From Escherichia coli (GTDB taxonomy: Bacteria > Pseudomonadota > Gammaproteobacteria > Enterobacterales > Enterobacteriaceae), in the NCBI RefSeq assembly GCF_003334335.1, contig NZ_QOWQ01000035.1: DNA of 47,404 nucleotides; one strand, given 5' to 3'. Shown piece by piece: positions 20,243-29,129 of the stretch (positions are counted from its first letter, which is position 1; each line of letters begins with the position of its first letter). A program made the translations under genes and the position numbers. The notes below the pieces were generated by a model. It searched no databases, was not told the DNA's origin, and saw only the letters and a list, made by a program, of their open reading frames with translations.

Positions 20243-21030
20243 ATGCAAACCATCACCATCGCCCCACCCAAGCGCAGCTGGTTCTCGCTTCTGAGCTGGG
20301 CCGTTGTACTCGCCGTGTTGGTCGTCTCGTGGCAGGGCGCGGAAATGGCCCCGCTTACGCTGATCAAAGACGGCGGCAACATGGCGACGTTCGCCGCCGA
20401 CTTCTTCCCGCCCGATTTCAGCCAGTGGCAGGATTACCTCACCGAAATGGCCGTCACGCTGCAAATCGCCGTCTGGGGCACCGCGCTGGCGGTGGTTCTC
20501 TCCATCCCCTTTGGCCTGATGAGCGCCGAAAACCTGGTGCCGTGGTGGGTTTACCAGCCCGTTCGCCGCCTGATGGACGCCTGCCGCGCCATTAACGAAA
20601 TGGTCTTCGCCATGCTGTTCGTGGTCGCCGTCGGCCTCGGCCCGTTCGCTGGCGTGCTGGCGTGCTGGCGCTGTTTATCCACACCACCGGCGTGCTCTCC
20701 AAGCTGCTTTCCGAAGCGGTGGAAGCGATTGAACCCGGCCCGGTGGAAGGCATTCGCGCCACCGGTGCCAACAAGCTCGAAGAGATCCTCTACGGCGTGC
20801 TGCCACAGGTGATGCCACTGCTGATCTCCTACTCCCTCTATCGCTTCGAATCCAACGTCCGCTCGGCGACCGTCGTCGGCATGGTCGGCGCAGGCGGGAT
20901 CGGCGTCACCCTGTGGGAAGCGATTCGCGGTTTCCAGTTCCAACAAACCTGCGCCCTGATGGTGCTTATCATCGTCACGGTCAGCCTGCTGGATTTCCTC
21001 TCTCAACGGTTGCGTAAGCACTTTATCTGA
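20243..21030 (+). pseudogene. phnE: phosphonate ABC transporter permease phnE, disrupted by frameshift within a tandem 8-bp repeat
   Basis: Permease reading frame is split between two overlapping ORFs (frame change near 20648-20671, where gctggcgt occurs twice then gctggcgc); known cryptic K-12 allele. Confidence 0.88.
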
Positions 21031-21050: not shown

Positions 21051-21776
21051 ATGCACTTGTCTACACATCCGACCAGCTACCCAACACGCTATCAAGAGAT
21101 AGCCGCAAAACTTGAGCAGGAGCTTCGTCAACACTACCGCTGCGGCGACTATCTTCCCGCCGAGCAGCAACTGGCAGCGCGCTTTGAGGTGAATCGCCAC
21201 ACCCTGCGCCGCGCCATCGACCAACTGGTGGAAAAAGGCTGGGTACAGCGCCGTCAGGGCGTCGGCGTGCTGGTGCTGATGCGCCCGTTCGATTACCCGC
21301 TCAACGCCCAGGCGCGTTTTAGCCAGAATCTGCTGGATCAGGGCAGCCATCCCACCAGCGAAAAACTGCTTTCGGTATTGCGCCCCGCGTCCGGCCACGT
21401 CGCTGACGCACTGGGGATTACCGAGGGGGAGAACGTCATCCACCTGCGCACCCTGCGTCGTGTCAACGGCGTCGCGCTCTGTTTAATCGACCACTACTTC
21501 GCGGACCTCACCCTCTGGCCGACGCTGCAACGCTTCGACAGCGGCTCGCTGCACGATTTTCTGCGCGAGCAAACCGGAATTGCGCTGCGCCGCAGCCAGA
21601 CGCGGATCAGCGCCCGCCGCGCCCAGGCCAAAGAGTGCCAGCGTCTTGAAATCCCGAATATGTCGCCGCTGCTGTGCGTGCGCACCCTTAACCACCGTGA
21701 CGGTGAAAGCAGCCCGGCGGAGTACTCCGTCAGCCTGACGCGCGCCGACATGATTGAATTCACTATGGAGCACTGA
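21051..21776 (+). CDS. phnF: GntR-family repressor of the phn operon
   Basis: 241-aa ORF from MHLSTHPTSYPTRYQEIA; N-terminal GntR HTH, UTRA-like C-terminus. Confidence 0.93.
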   Translation: MHLSTHPTSYPTRYQEIAAKLEQELRQHYRCGDYLPAEQQLAARFEVNRHTLRRAIDQLVEKGWVQRRQGVGVLVLMRPFDYPLNAQARFSQNLLDQGSHPTSEKLLSVLRPASGHVADALGITEGENVIHLRTLRRVNGVALCLIDHYFADLTLWPTLQRFDSGSLHDFLREQTGIALRRSQTRISARRAQAKECQRLEIPNMSPLLCVRTLNHRDGESSPAEYSVSLTRADMIEFTMEH

Positions 21777-22229
21777 ATGCACGCAGATACCGCGACCCGC
21801 CAGCACTGGATGTCCGTGCTGGCGCACAGCCAACCGGCTGAACTGGCAGCACGCCTGAACGCGCTAAACATCACCGCCGACTATGAGGTGATCCGCGCCG
21901 CTGAAACTGGCCTGGTACAGATTCAGGCGCGGATGGGCGGCACCGGCGAACGTTTTTTTGCCGGCGACGCCACGCTGACCCGCGCCGCCGTGCGCCTGAC
22001 TGACGGCACGCTCGGCTACAGCTGGGTGCAGGGGCGTGATAAACAGCACGCCGAACGCTGCGCGCTGATTGACGCGCTGATGCAGCAATCTCGCCACTTT
22101 CAAAACTTATCAGAAACCCTTATTGCCCCGCTGGACGCTGACCGTATGGCACGCATTGCCGCACGCCAGGCCGAAGTGAACGCCAGCCGGGTCGACTTCT
22201 TTACGATGGTTCGCGGAGACAACGCATGA
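21777..22229 (+). CDS. phnG: C-P lyase core complex subunit PhnG
   Basis: 150-aa ORF; position and length in phn operon. Confidence 0.93.
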
Positions 22230-22810
22230 CCCTGGAAACCGCTTTTATGCTTCCCGTGCAGGATGCCCAGCACAGTTTTCGTCGCCTGTTAAAGGCCATG
22301 AGCGAGCCGGGCGTGATTGTCGCCCTGCATCAGCTCAAACGCGGCTGGCAACCGCTGAATATCGCCACCACCAGCGTGCTGCTGACGCTGGCCGATAACG
22401 ACACGCCGGTGTGGCTTTCTACCCCATTAAATAACGATATCGTCAACCAGAGCCTGCGTTTTCATACCAACGCGCCGCTGGTCAGCCAGCCGGAACAGGC
22501 GACCTTCGCGGTGACGGATGAGGCGATTTCCAGCGAACAGCTCAACGCCCTTTCCACCGGCACCGCCGTTGCGCCGGAAGCGGGTGCGACGCTGATTTTA
22601 CAGGTCGCCAGCCTGAGCGGCGGACGCATGTTGCGCCTTACTGGTGCGGGTATTGCCGAAGAACGAATGATCGCTCCGCAGCTGCCGGAGTGCATTCTGC
22701 ACGAACTCACCGAGCGCCCGCATCCGTTCCCGCTCGGCATCGACCTGATCCTGACCTGTGGCGAGCGCCTGCTGGCTATTCCGCGAACCACTCATGTGGA
22801 GGTGTGCTGA
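22226..22810 (+). CDS. phnH: C-P lyase core complex subunit PhnH
   Basis: 194-aa ORF; ATGA overlap with phnG stop. Confidence 0.93.
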
Positions 22811-23874
22811 TGTACGTTGCCGTGAAAGGGGGCGAGAAGGCGATCGACGCCGCCCACGCCCTGCAAGAGAGCCGACGCCGAGGCGATACCGATTTGCCCG
22901 AACTGAGCGTCGCCCAGATTGAACAGCAGCTTAACCTCGCGGTAGATCGCGTGATGACCGAAGGCGGCATTGCCGACCGCGAACTGGCGGCGCTGGCGCT
23001 GAAACAGGCCAGCGGCGATAACGTTGAAGCGATTTTCCTGCTGCGCGCCTACCGCACCACGTTGGCGAAGCTGGCGGTAAGCGAGCCGCTCGACACCACC
23101 GGGATGCGTCTCGAACGCCGTATCTCCGCCGTTTATAAAGACATTCCCGGCGGCCAGCTGCTTGGCCCAACCTACGACTACACCCATCGCCTGCTCGATT
23201 TTACCCTGCTGGCAAACGGCGAAGCGCCGACGCTGACCACCGCCGACAGCGAACAGCAGCCGTCGCCGCACGTTTTCAGCCTGCTGGCGCGTCAGGGGCT
23301 GGCGAAGTTTGAAGAGGATAGCGGCGCACAGCCGGATGACATCACCCGCACGCCGCCGGTTTACCCCTGCTCACGCTCCTCCCGTTTGCAGCAGTTGATG
23401 CGCGGCGACGAAGGCTATTTGCTGGCGCTGGCCTACTCCACCCAACGCGGTTACGGGCGCAATCACCCGTTCGCAGGCGAGATCCGCAGCGGCTATATCG
23501 ACGTGTCGATTGTGCCGGAAGAGCTGGGATTTGCGGTGAACGTCGGCGAACTGCTGATGACTGAGTGTGAAATGGTTAACGGTTTTATCGACCCGCCGGG
23601 TGAGCCGCCGCACTTCACGCGCGGCTACGGGCTGGTGTTCGGCATGAGCGAGCGCAAAGCGATGGCGATGGCGCTGGTCGACCGCGCTCTGCAAGCCCCG
23701 GAGTACGGCGAGCACGCGACAGGCCCGGCGCAGGATGAAGAGTTCGTGCTGGCACATGCCGACAACGTCGAAGCCGCAGGCTTTGTCTCACACCTCAAAC
23801 TCCCCCACTACGTCGATTTCCAGGCCGAACTGGAGCTACTCAAACGTCTGCAACAGGAGCAGAACCATGGCTAA
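22810..23874 (+). CDS. phnI: C-P lyase subunit PhnI (ribosyl-triphosphate forming nucleosidase)
   Basis: 354-aa ORF from [16 protein letters not shown]; ORF-track upstream extension rejected. Confidence 0.93.
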   Translation: MYVAVKGGEKAIDAAHALQESRRRGDTDLPELSVAQIEQQLNLAVDRVMTEGGIADRELAALALKQASGDNVEAIFLLRAYRTTLAKLAVSEPLDTTGMRLERRISAVYKDIPGGQLLGPTYDYTHRLLDFTLLANGEAPTLTTADSEQQPSPHVFSLLARQGLAKFEEDSGAQPDDITRTPPVYPCSRSSRLQQLMRGDEGYLLALAYSTQRGYGRNHPFAGEIRSGYIDVSIVPEELGFAVNVGELLMTECEMVNGFIDPPGEPPHFTRGYGLVFGMSERKAMAMALVDRALQAPEYGEHATGPAQDEEFVLAHADNVEAAGFVSHLKLPHYVDFQAELELLKRLQQEQNHG

Positions 23875-24712
23875 TCTGAGCGGCTACAACTTTGCCTACC
23901 TCGACGAGCAGACCAAACGCATGATCCGCCGCGCCATCTTAAAAGCGGTGGCGATCCCCGGTTATCAGGTGCCGTTTGGCGGGCGCGAGATGCCGATGCC
24001 GTACGGCTGGGGAACCGGCGGCATTCAGCTTACCGCCAGCGTGATTGGCGAAAGCGACGTGCTGAAGGTGATTGACCAGGGCGCGGATGACACCACCAAC
24101 GCCGTGTCGATTCGCAACTTCTTCAAGCGCGTGACCGGGGTAAACACCACGGAACGTACGGACGATGCGACGGTTATCCAGACGCGTCACCGCATCCCCG
24201 AAACGCCGCTGACCGAAGATCAGATAATTATCTTCCAGGTGCCAATCCCCGAGCCGCTGCGCTTTATCGAGCCGCGCGAAACGGAAACCCGCACCATGCA
24301 CGCGCTGGAAGAGTACGGCGTGATGCAGGTGAAACTGTATGAAGATATCGCCCGCTTCGGTCATATCGCCACCACCTACGCCTATCCGGTGAAGGTAAAT
24401 GGGCGCTACGTGATGGACCCGTCGCCGATCCCGAAATTCGATAACCCAAAAATGGACATGATGCCCGCCCTGCAACTGTTCGGCGCGGGGCGCGAGAAGC
24501 GCATCTATGCGGTGCCGCCGTTTACCCGCGTGGAAAGTCTCGATTTCGACGATCACCCGTTCACCGTTCAGCAGTGGGATGAGCCATGCGCCATCTGCGG
24601 ATCGACCCACAGCTATCTTGATGAAGTGGTGCTGGATGACGCCGGAAACCGCATGTTTGTCTGCTCCGATACCGATTATTGCCGCCAACAGAGCGAGGCA
24701 AAAAACCAATGA
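23867..24712 (+). CDS. phnJ: C-P lyase PhnJ (radical SAM-type, four-Cys cluster)
   Basis: 281-aa ORF from MANLSGYNFAYLDEQTKRMIRRA; C-terminal CxxCxxxxxC...C motif. Confidence 0.93.
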   Translation: MANLSGYNFAYLDEQTKRMIRRAILKAVAIPGYQVPFGGREMPMPYGWGTGGIQLTASVIGESDVLKVIDQGADDTTNAVSIRNFFKRVTGVNTTERTDDATVIQTRHRIPETPLTEDQIIIFQVPIPEPLRFIEPRETETRTMHALEEYGVMQVKLYEDIARFGHIATTYAYPVKVNGRYVMDPSPIPKFDNPKMDMMPALQLFGAGREKRIYAVPPFTRVESLDFDDHPFTVQQWDEPCAICGSTHSYLDEVVLDDAGNRMFVCSDTDYCRQQSEAKNQ

Positions 24713-25467
24713 ATCAACCGTTACTTTCGGTCAATAACCTGACCCACCTTTACGCGCCGGGCAAAGGCTTTAGCGATGTCTCTTTTGATTTATGGCCGGG
24801 GGAAGTGCTGGGCATTGTCGGGGAATCCGGCTCCGGGAAGACCACGCTGCTGAAGTCGATCTCCGCGCGCCTGACGCCGCAGCAGGGGGAAATTCACTAC
24901 GAGAACCGTTCGCTGTATGCAATGAGCGAGGCCGACCGCCGTCGCCTGCTGCGTACCGAATGGGGCGTGGTGCATCAGCATCCACTCGACGGCCTGCGCC
25001 GCCAGGTGTCGGCGGGCGGCAATATCGGCGAGCGGCTGATGGCGACCGGGGCACGTCATTACGGCGATATTCGTGCCACCGCGCAGAAGTGGCTGGAAGA
25101 GGTGGAGATTCCCGCCAACCGGATCGACGACCTGCCGACCACCTTTTCCGGCGGTATGCAGCAGCGTTTGCAGATTGCCCGCAACCTGGTGACGCATCCG
25201 AAGCTGGTGTTTATGGATGAACCGACCGGCGGGCTGGATGTGTCGGTGCAGGCCCGCCTGCTCGACCTGCTGCGCGGCCTGGTGGTGGAGCTGAACCTCG
25301 CGGTGGTGATTGTCACCCATGATTTAGGCGTCGCCCGCCTGCTGGCGGACCGTTTGCTGGTGATGAAGCAGGGGCAAGTGGTGGAGAGTGGGTTAACCGA
25401 CCGCGTGCTCGACGACCCGCATCATCCGTATACACAGCTGCTGGTGTCATCGGTTTTGCAGAATTGA
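24709..25467 (+). CDS. phnK: C-P lyase accessory ABC-type ATPase PhnK
   Basis: 252-aa ORF from [11 protein letters not shown]; Walker [10 protein letters not shown]. Confidence 0.93.
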
Positions 25468-25472
25468 GCCGG

Positions 25473-25556
<84 letters not shown>

Positions 25557-25577
25557 ACCCGAACCACGAGGCGAAAA

Positions 25578-26258
25578 ATGATTAACGTACAAAACGTCAG
25601 TAAAACCTTCATCCTGCACCAGCAAAACGGCGTGCGCCTGCCCGTCCTCAATCGCGCCTCGCTCACCGTCAACGCGGGCGAATGCGTGGTGCTCCACGGC
25701 CATTCCGGCAGCGGCAAATCAACTCTGCTACGCTCGCTGTACGCCAACTATCTGCCCGACGAAGGTCAAATCCAGATCAAACACGGTGACGAGTGGGTAG
25801 ACCTGGTCACCGCGCCAGCGCGCAAAGTGGTGGAAATCCGCAAAACCACCGTCGGCTGGGTGAGCCAGTTTCTGCGCGTCATCCCGCGTATCTCAGCACT
25901 GGAAGTGGTGATGCAGCCGCTGCTCGATACCGGCGTTCCGCGTGAAGCCTGCGCCGCTAAAGCCGCGCGTCTTCTCACCCGCCTGAACGTGCCGGAACGC
26001 CTGTGGCACCTGGCACCATCGACATTTTCCGGTGGCGAACAGCAGCGCGTCAACATCGCCCGCGGCTTTATCGTCGACTACCCCATTCTGCTGCTTGACG
26101 AACCTACCGCCTCGCTGGACGCCAAAAACAGCGCCGCGGTGGTGGAACTGATTCGCGAAGCCAAAACCCGTGGCGCAGCCATCGTAGGCATCTTCCATGA
26201 CGAAGCTGTACGTAATGACGTCGCCGACCGCCTGCACCCAATGGGAGCCTCTTCATGA
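25578..26258 (+). CDS. phnL: C-P lyase accessory ABC-type ATPase PhnL
   Basis: 226-aa ORF from [11 protein letters not shown]; Walker [10 protein letters not shown]. Confidence 0.93.
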
Positions 26259-27391
26259 TTATCAATAACGTTAAGCTGGTGCTGGAAAACGAGGTGGTAA
26301 GCGGTTCGCTGGAGGTGCAGAACGGCGAAATCCGCGCCTTTGCCGAAAGCCAGAGCCGCCTGCCGGAGGCGATGGACGGCGAAGGCGGCTGGCTGCTGCC
26401 GGGGCTGATTGAGCTGCATACCGATAATCTGGATAAATTCTTCACCCCGCGCCCGAAAGTTGACTGGCCTGCCCACTCGGCGATGAGCAGCCACGACGCG
26501 CTGATGGTGGCGAGCGGCATCACCACCGTACTGGATGCCGTGGCAATTGGCGACGTGCGCGACGGCGGCGATCGGCTGGAGAATCTGGAGAAGATGATCA
26601 ACGCCATCGAAGAGACGCAGAAACGCGGCGTCAACCGCGCCGAGCACCGTCTGCATCTGCGCTGCGAACTGCCGCATCACACCACGCTGCCGCTGTTTGA
26701 AAAACTGGTGCAGCGCGAGCCGGTGACGCTGGTGTCGCTGATGGACCACTCGCCGGGCCAGCGCCAGTTCGCCAACCGCGAGAAGTATCGCGAATATTAT
26801 CAGGGCAAATACTCCCTCACTGATGCGCAGATGCAGCAGTACGAAGAAGAGCAACTGGCGCTCGCCGCACGCTGGTCGCAGCCGAATCGCGAATCCATCG
26901 CCGCCCTGTGCCGCGCGCGAAAAATTGCGCTTGCCAGCCACGATGACGCCACCCACGCCCACGTTGCTGAATCTCACCAGCTTGGCAGCGTGATCGCCGA
27001 ATTTCCCACCACGTTCGAAGCGGCGGAAGCCTCGCGCAAGCATGGCATGAACGTGCTGATGGGCGCGCCGAATATTGTGCGCGGCGGCTCGCACTCCGGC
27101 AACGTGGCGGCCAGTGAACTGGCGCAGCTTGGCCTGCTGGATATCCTCTCTTCCGACTACTACCCCGCCAGCCTGCTCGATGCGGCATTTCGCGTCGCCG
27201 ATGACCAGAGCAACCGCTTTACGCTGCCGCAGGCGGTGAAGCTGGTGACTAAAAATCCAGCGCAGGCGCTTAATCTCCAGGATCGCGGGGTGATTGGCGA
27301 GGGCAAACGCGCCGACCTGGTGCTGGCGCATCGCAAGGACAATCATATTCATATCGACCACGTCTGGCGTCAGGGTAAAAGGGTGTTCTGA
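26255..27391 (+). CDS. phnM: PhnM, amidohydrolase-family RPnTP diphosphatase
   Basis: 378-aa [16 protein letters not shown]...; ATGA overlap with phnL. Confidence 0.93.
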
Positions 27392-27948
27392 TGATGGGAA
27401 AACTGATTTGGTTAATGGGGCCGTCCGGCTCCGGGAAAGACAGCCTGCTGGCGGAACTCCGCCTGCGGGAACAAACTCAGTTACTGGTGGCGCATCGCTA
27501 CATCACGCGCGATGCCAGCGCCGGAAGTGAAAACCATATCGCCCTGAGCGAGCAGGAGTTTTTTACCCGCGCGGGGCAAAATCTGTTGGCCTTAAGCTGG
27601 CACGCTAACGGTCTGTATTATGGCGTCGGCGTCGAGATTGATCTCTGGCTGCACGCCGGATTCGACGTGCTGGTCAACGGCTCACGCGCCCATCTGCCGC
27701 AGGCGCGGGCGCGCTATCAATCGGCGCTGCTGCCCGTCTGTTTACAGGTTTCGCCGGAGATCCTCCGCCAGCGCCTGGAAAACCGTGGCCGTGAAAACGC
27801 CAGTGAAATTAACGCCCGCCTGGCGCGCGCCGCCCGCTATACTCCACAGGATTGCCATACGCTCAACAATGACGGCAGCCTGCGCCAGTCGGTCGACACG
27901 CTGCTGACGCTGATCCATCAGAAGGAGAAACACCATGCCTGCTTGTGA
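27391..27948 (+). CDS. phnN: ribose 1,5-bisphosphate phosphokinase PhnN
   Basis: 185-aa ORF with P-loop GPSGSGKDS. Confidence 0.93.
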
Positions 27949-28369
27949 GCTTCGCCCGGCCACGCAGTACGACACCGACGCGTTTTACGCGCTGATTTGT
28001 GAGCTAAAACAGGCGGAGTTTGACCACCACGCGTTTCGCGTGGGTTTTAACGCCAATCTGCGCGACCCAAACATGCGCTACCATCTGGCGCTGCTTGATG
28101 GCGAAGTTGTCGGCATGATCGGCCTGCATTTGCAGTTTCATCTGCATCATGTCAACTGGATCGGCGAAATTCAGGAGTTGGTGGTAATGCCGCAGGCGCG
28201 CGGTCTGAACGTCGGCAGTAAGTTACTGGCGTGGGCAGAAGAAGAAGCCCGCCAGGCCGGGGCCGAAATGACCGAACTTTCGACCAACGTGAAGCGCCAC
28301 GACGCGCACCGTTTCTATCTGCGCGAAGGCTACGAGCAGAGCCACTTCCGCTTCACCAAGGCGCTGTAA
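27935..28369 (+). CDS. phnO: aminoalkylphosphonate N-acetyltransferase PhnO (GNAT)
   Basis: 144-aa ORF; GNAT-like. Confidence 0.92.
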
Positions 28370-28370
28370 C

Positions 28371-29129
28371 ATGAGCCTGACCCTCACGCTCACCGGCACC
28401 GGCGGCGCACAGGGCGTTCCGGCATGGGGCTGCGAGTGTGCGGCCTGCGCCAGAGCGCGGCGCTCGCCGCAGTATCGCCGCCAACCGTGCAGCGGCGTAG
28501 TGAAGTTTAACGACGCAATCACCCTGATCGACGCCGGGCTGCACGATCTCGCCGATCGCTGGTCGCCCGGATCGTTCCAGCAGTTTTTGCTGACGCATTA
28601 TCATATGGATCACGTCCAGGGGCTGTTTCCGCTGCGCTGGGGCGTTGGCGATCCGATCCCGGTTTACGGCCCGCCGGATGAACAGGGCTGCGACGATCTG
28701 TTTAAACATCCGGGCCTGCTTGATTTCAGCCACACGGTGGAACCGTTTGTGGTGTTTGATTTGCAGGGGTTACAGGTCACGCCCCTGCCGCTCAACCACT
28801 CAAAACTGACCTTCGGTTATCTGCTGGAAACGGCACACAGCCGGGTGGCGTGGCTGTCTGACACCGCAGGCTTGCCGGAAAAAACGCTGAAATTTTTACG
28901 CAATAATCAGCCGCAGGTAATGGTGATGGATTGCAGTCACCCGCCGCGCGCGGATGCACCGCGTAATCACTGTGATTTAAATACCGTGCTTGCGCTGAAT
29001 CAGGTTATCCGCTCGCCACGGGTGATTCTGACCCATATCAGCCACCAGTTTGATGCGTGGCTGATGGAAAACGCACTACCGTCAGGGTTTGAGGTGGGGT
29101 TTGATGGGATGGAGATTGGGGTGGCGTGA
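28371..29129 (+). CDS. phnP: phosphoribosyl 1,2-cyclic phosphate phosphodiesterase PhnP (metallo-beta-lactamase fold)
   Basis: 252-aa ORF with HxHxDH motif ([10 protein letters not shown]). Confidence 0.93.

Follow-up and report, generated by a model that had tools for sequence, protein, structure and literature searches.

The closest described system is the cryptic phn locus of Escherichia coli K-12, in which the PhnCDE transporter is silenced by an 8-bp insertion in phnE and from which revertants arise by slippage (Stasi et al. 2019, PMC6469041). That article cites Makino 1991 and Iqbal 2004 for the K-12 allele and for its reversion by slippage. In the K-12 phnE the 8-bp unit is present three times instead of twice, resulting in a frameshift (PMC7566553, PMC3463581), and Hove-Jensen et al. 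2012 and Moreau and co-workers 2016 are in agreement on the cryptic nature of the gene. K-12 strains with the three-unit allele are reported to be unable to take up phosphonates, and reversion is readily selected under phosphonate or low-phosphate conditions. In the spontaneous revertant RI57 the loss of 5′-GCTGGCGT was accompanied by the recovery of transport (Stasi et al. 2019, PMC6469041). The functional counterpart is the phnE of E. coli B and of most E. coli (phn(EcoB); WP_001193500.1 and variants), which has two units where the locus described here has three.

The contingency loci of Haemophilus, Neisseria, Campylobacter and the mycoplasmas are more distant relatives in kind. In these an intragenic tandem repeat, with a unit that is not a multiple of three, sets the ON or OFF state by its unit number, and close relatives differ in that number, all as in the present locus. 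Classical contingency loci have long tracts, are located in surface or restriction-modification genes and are found in mixed states, whereas the phnE tract comprises two to four units, lies within a nutrient-uptake gene and is nearly fixed OFF in the clade that carries it.

The window (the whole stretch of DNA analysed, 47,404 nucleotides) contains a phnE gene in which positions 20648–20671 read GCTGGCGT GCTGGCGT GCTGGCGC, the full array being GCTGGCGTGCTGGCGTGCTGGCGC. The coordinates of this and the associated features are collected in Table 1. Tandem Repeats Finder delimits the array as 20648–20670, with a period of 8, 2.9 copies and 100% matches. Nowhere else in the 47.4-kb window does an exact run of period 8 reach 23 nt, and 300 simulations of the window under a first-order Markov model produced no such run. 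The unit, its position (nt 406–429 of phnE) and its flanks are those of the cryptic phn(EcoK0) allele of K-12 as described in the literature, and over the 4-kb phnC–phnH segment K-12 DHB4 differs from the window by one synonymous base. A reading made earlier from the sequence alone had named the locus as the classic cryptic allele, and it is indeed a correct re-identification of the published 8-bp-duplication allele. RefSeq applies the label 'phnE, frameshifted' to the identical sequence in K-12 DHB4, K-12 EMG2 and strain 300709, and the phnE of this window should be annotated likewise as a frameshifted pseudogene.

Table 1. Features of the phn region and of the left end of the window
Feature	Coordinates	Strand	Remarks
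IS1414 end (IS256-like), terminal 77 bases, within melB	1-77		junction 77/78
Pho-box-like direct repeats CTGTTAGTCAC TTTTAATTAAC CAAATCGTCAC	18231..18263	+	5′ of phnC; read from sequence
phnC	18308-19096	+	ATPase of PhnCDE transporter; intact
phnD	19121-20137	+	periplasmic binding protein of PhnCDE transporter; intact
phnE pseudogene, 788 nt	20243..21030	+	frameshifted after codon 140; intact form 780 nt, 259 aa
phnE N-terminal frame	20243..20812	+	ATG 20243; premature stop 20810-20812
Tandem array, three 8-bp units	20648..20671	+	nt 406-429 of phnE; two units in functional alleles
phnE C-terminal frame	20662..21030	+	listed from GTG 20662; open from 20596
phnF + phnG-phnP	21051..29129	+	regulator + C-P lyase pathway; 11/11 genes intact

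The permease frame is split at the tandem repeat, as the same reading had proposed, with one frame stopping at 20812 and the other ending at 21030. The N-terminal frame encodes 140 residues of native PhnE and then 49 aberrant residues, while the C-terminal frame supplies the latter half of PhnE, in which the EAIEPG...LP cytoplasmic loop is located. As listed, the two ORFs overlap by 151 nt.

Deletion of one unit in silico generates a continuous ORF of 259 codons plus a stop, in keeping with the repair that the sequence-only reading had foreseen. The repaired 259-aa product is 100% identical to WP_001193500.1, annotated as the intact PhnE of two-unit strains. Against the NCBIfam equivalog model TIGR01097 the repaired protein scores 311.5 bits over profile positions 8–251 of 252, where the curated cut-off is a whole-protein HMM score of 216.7 bits. 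Taken alone, neither the N-terminal fragment (127.7 bits) nor the C-terminal fragment (176.5 bits, profile positions 131–251) reaches the cut-off, which is what a pseudogene should show. Residues 88–258 of the repaired protein match the transmembrane domain of ABC importers (Pfam PF00528 BPD_transp_1, E = 5.6e-26). Since the frame shifts after residue 140, this domain is cut in half. Varying the unit number in silico leaves the frame open with two or five units and closes it with one, three or four; the five-unit gene, which has two added units, is in frame with an insertion of eight residues.

Very probably, therefore, phnE in the window is in the OFF form of a switch governed by repeat length. 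Its product is the membrane subunit of PhnCDE, the phosphonate ABC importer. In the functional allele two octamers, GCTGGCGT GCTGGCGC, encode ..AGVLAL.., whereas here a third octamer shifts the frame after residue 140, so that translation ends at 20812. The truncated PhnE lacks the second half of the permease domain, so that PhnCDE would not assemble a channel. During replication, slippage between the direct repeats can remove or add a single unit. The gene is in frame when the unit count is two more than a multiple of three (two, five and so on), other counts being OFF; the two-unit allele is the known functional (ON) form. Slippage is probably the molecular route by which the unit number changes. 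High-frequency reversible ON/OFF switching was reportedly described for K-12 by Iqbal et al. in 2004. By analogy with the phenotypes of K-12 the present strain is presumably Phn-negative, with phosphonate uptake off. It is predicted to be without phosphonate import until one 8-bp unit is lost, and PhnCDE is likewise predicted to be unusable as a back-up phosphate importer until that occurs.

The overlap of the two frames raises the question of translational bypass, whereby programmed ribosomal frameshifting or reinitiation would give either functional PhnE or a split permease. The frames overlap between 20596 and 20812, so that one −1 event there would join them, and GTG 20662 could start the C-terminal half. 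Yet K-12 strains with the same three-unit allele are phosphonate-uptake negative by report. No slippery heptamer of the form X XXY YYZ and no homopolymer run of five or more are present in phnE, there is no Shine–Dalgarno-like sequence 5′ of GTG 20662, and the RNA hairpin of the three-unit repeat does not exceed shuffled sequence in stability (z = +0.5). Bypass is rejected on the basis of these observations together with the K-12 phenotype, and is considered very improbable. The repeat was also flagged as an intrinsic terminator by a pattern scan; this too is rejected, because with two, three or four units its folding is no stabler than that of shuffled sequences (z from +0.5 to +1.4).

The unit number was surveyed in 5,426 complete E. 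coli genomes with a 104-nt query across the phnE repeat, alleles being called from the identity band and from how long a stretch was matched in a given record. Two units are found in about 3,900 records, three in about 1,009 (of which 991 are identical over the 104 nt) and four in 12, while no one-unit or five-unit allele occurs among the genomes searched. Some platforms can miscount short tandem repeats, and the third unit might in principle be an error of sequencing or assembly; an 8-bp unit is not, however, a typical homopolymer-type error, and an artefact is effectively excluded by the presence of three units in about 1,009 independently assembled records, many K-12 references included. 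The exact haplotype of the window, defined by an exact match spanning the repeat and position 20733, is present in 634 records from 632 genomes. All of the 60 carriers of this haplotype that were sampled are non-laboratory strains and none is labelled K-12. They derive from people, poultry, pigs, cattle, sheep, a frog, seawater and wastewater, and include NCTC86.

On the 1.1-kb haplotype of the window there are five two-unit records (ETEC1732, ETEC1734, Z217-2, Z217-4 and RI57), the next two-unit haplotype being 0.6% away. RI57 (CP032679) is the revertant mentioned above, and its genome has two units and an intact phnE, with exactly one unit lost. All five of the four-unit alleles that were sampled have exactly the same 1.1-kb haplotype. 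In O157:H7 PA20 and in ST2747 the two-unit repeat is broken by a synonymous SNP (GCTGGTGT GCTGGCGC and GCTGGCGT ACTGGCGC respectively), so slippage should be less likely in those lineages. Compared with the Chi site GCTGGTGG, the unit GCTGGCGT agrees at six of eight positions and the O157 variant GCTGGTGT at seven. A search of one genome per species (GTDB) with the three-unit 23-mer returned 45 unrelated loci, mostly in GC-rich bacteria; none of the 45 is enterobacterial and none encodes a PhnE-like protein. The GTDB loci with three or more octamers are often long arrays of 24-nt periodicity, with up to seven matches.

The distribution of the allele bears on the origin of the window, since the sequence-only reading had taken the allele to support a K-12 lineage. 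Its account of inactivation by a third unit, of repair by loss of a unit and of identity with the K-12 allele stands, but the inference of a K-12 lineage does not. The three-unit allele is widespread outside K-12, and both SNPs and insertion sequence positions also argue against K-12. As the broken allele is common to hundreds of wild E. coli, its presence does not make the window K-12 itself; with about 1,009 three-unit records, 634 of them with the haplotype of the window, it characterizes a K-12-like clade that extends beyond K-12. The three-unit allele should therefore not serve as a K-12 marker in strain typing, since it is found in hundreds of strains of human, farm-animal and water origin.

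Aligned with K-12 EMG2 over 78–47301 (47.2 kb), the window has 12 mismatches and no gaps. Position 20733, a synonymous site in phnE, is A in the window and G in six of six K-12-derived records examined. Among the strains compared K-12 stands alone at 9907 and 20733, and at both the window matches the non-K-12 strains; at 25014 K-12 keeps the outgroup base and the window has the derived base. Position 9907 lies in codon 29 of BasR, which is Gly in the window and in all 11 other non-K-12 strains and Ser in EMG2 alone. In the PmrA/BasR regulator, Ser29 is private to K-12. At seven positions (5643, 6682, 10812, 14599, 17118, 27983 and 33429) the SNP is found in the window alone among the 13 sequences compared, and other strains of this clade have similar numbers of private SNPs. 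Among the seven are V17F in PhnO, A27V in YjdM and D313Y in AlsA.

The ends of the window also set it apart from the cryptic phn(EcoK0) locus of K-12, in addition to the 12 SNPs. At the left end melB is truncated by insertion of IS1414. The K-12 derivative ER1709 contains the melB part only, with no match to IS1414, and the IS1414/melB junction of the window is absent from the complete E. coli genomes searched. In five complete genomes IS1414 is inserted in melB ∼65 bp away from this junction. The right end, from about 47302, is formed by the end of an IS4-like element of the IS421/IS186 family located downstream of yjcO, at a site that is absent in EMG2. With insertion sequence fragments at both ends, the 47-kb stretch looks like a whole short-read contig.

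The history of the unit number was followed by comparing SNPs at 28.7 kb of aligned positions (window 2600–38500) in 12 genomes and the window, which yielded three informative sites. The derived G at 25014 is present in the window, ETEC1706 and 300709, which have three units, and in Z217-2 (two units) and TB4019 (four units). The derived A at 26780 is shared by Z217-2 and TB4019, and the derived A at 28850 by NCTC86 (three units), VR50 and SW071611 (both four units). Two further four-unit strains have a mosaic background. The nesting of two- and four-unit strains within the three-unit clade suggests that slippage may have occurred in both directions outside the laboratory, on three informative SNPs only, a pattern that recombination could mimic. 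Starting from a three-unit ancestor, parsimony requires units to have been gained two or more times and lost in nature at least once. The two units of ETEC1732 could represent an ancestral state that preceded the expansion and not a reversion. The one mildly new element is that the allele is widely distributed in nature and has changed in length recurrently.

The same data may be read in terms of a decaying pseudogene fixed in one lineage, the unit having been gained once in a K-12-like ancestor and inherited clonally, with rare changes of length as noise that has no adaptive role. Several observations point in this direction. Nearly all three-unit alleles share one haplotype, 991 of about 1,009 being identical over the 104 nt. 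When the three-unit allele was placed on the flank haplotype with A at 20703 (a variant common among the sampled genomes), this synthetic query had no perfect match. On that shared haplotype the records that have two units number five, versus 12 that have moved farther from function to four units. One four-unit strain, YZ22PE244, has an annotated internal stop in phnJ (23268–24113). NCTC86 has an annotated frameshift in phnN (26752–27308); its record is also frameshifted in rdcB and crfC, so that assembly errors are possible there. Against long decay, the 13 remaining phn genes are undamaged both in the window and in most of the carriers sampled. An intact operon is unexpected under long relaxed selection, yet the clade is young, with few SNPs per 36 kb. 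The ready selection of K-12 revertants also speaks against a dead gene. The sole difference between a fixed pseudogene and a switch is whether reversibility matters in nature. We consider a fixed pseudogene unlikely overall; it is still a reasonable explanation for natural populations, because OFF is nearly fixed within the clade.

A switch that operates slowly offers another account of that near-fixation. Among natural carriers, with about 1,009 three-unit records against five with two units, OFF is so nearly fixed that in the wild the locus resembles a stable trait of the lineage more than it does a fast switch. Thus OFF phnE might be the standing state of a large wild clade and a slow natural contingency locus, favoured in gut or host habitats, a proposal that is tentative and that we rate somewhat below even chances. 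The wild OFF clade would be ∼12% of complete E. coli genomes, including Escherich's NCTC86, and the octamer tract would be one that has gained and lost units repeatedly in nature (two, three and four units). If this is true, cryptic phn would be no peculiarity of a laboratory strain, and would act as a slow switch for the uptake of phosphonate and phosphate. Among the papers searched, none ties phnE to phylogroup A or ST10. A major lineage of commensals, also associated with multidrug resistance, has the OFF allele commonly and stably, and the rare natural two- and four-unit derivatives provide raw material for testing whether the gut selects for lost phosphonate uptake.

All 14 phn genes (phnC-phnD-phnE, phnF and phnG-P) are present in the K-12 order, 13 of them intact, so that the use of phosphonate would be blocked at uptake only. 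The coordinates of phnF–phnP were mapped from the EMG2 annotation, and within this span the window differs from K-12 by one synonymous SNP in phnK (25014) and by V17F in phnO. The Pho-box-like repeats 5′ of phnC are presumably the PhoB-dependent promoter of the operon; a search of the window with the strict Pho-box consensus, allowing up to three mismatches, gave no match.

The gene order of the whole window is that of K-12 (melB'-melA-melR-adiAYC-eptA-basRS-proP-crfC-yjdMN-phnCDEFGHIJKLMNOP-rpiB-als-yjcS-mdtNOP-fdhF-yjcO). Between yjdM and yjdN (17386–17668) there are tandem copies of ∼100 bp each that are ∼95% alike. The yjdM–yjdN spacing differs among the strains examined, so the number of tandem copies varies. 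Downstream of yjcO (47040–47404) the window has fewer REP-type repeats than K-12 EMG2. The fdhF gene (44107–46254) contains one in-frame stop, identical to that of K-12, which is the expected selenocysteine UGA.
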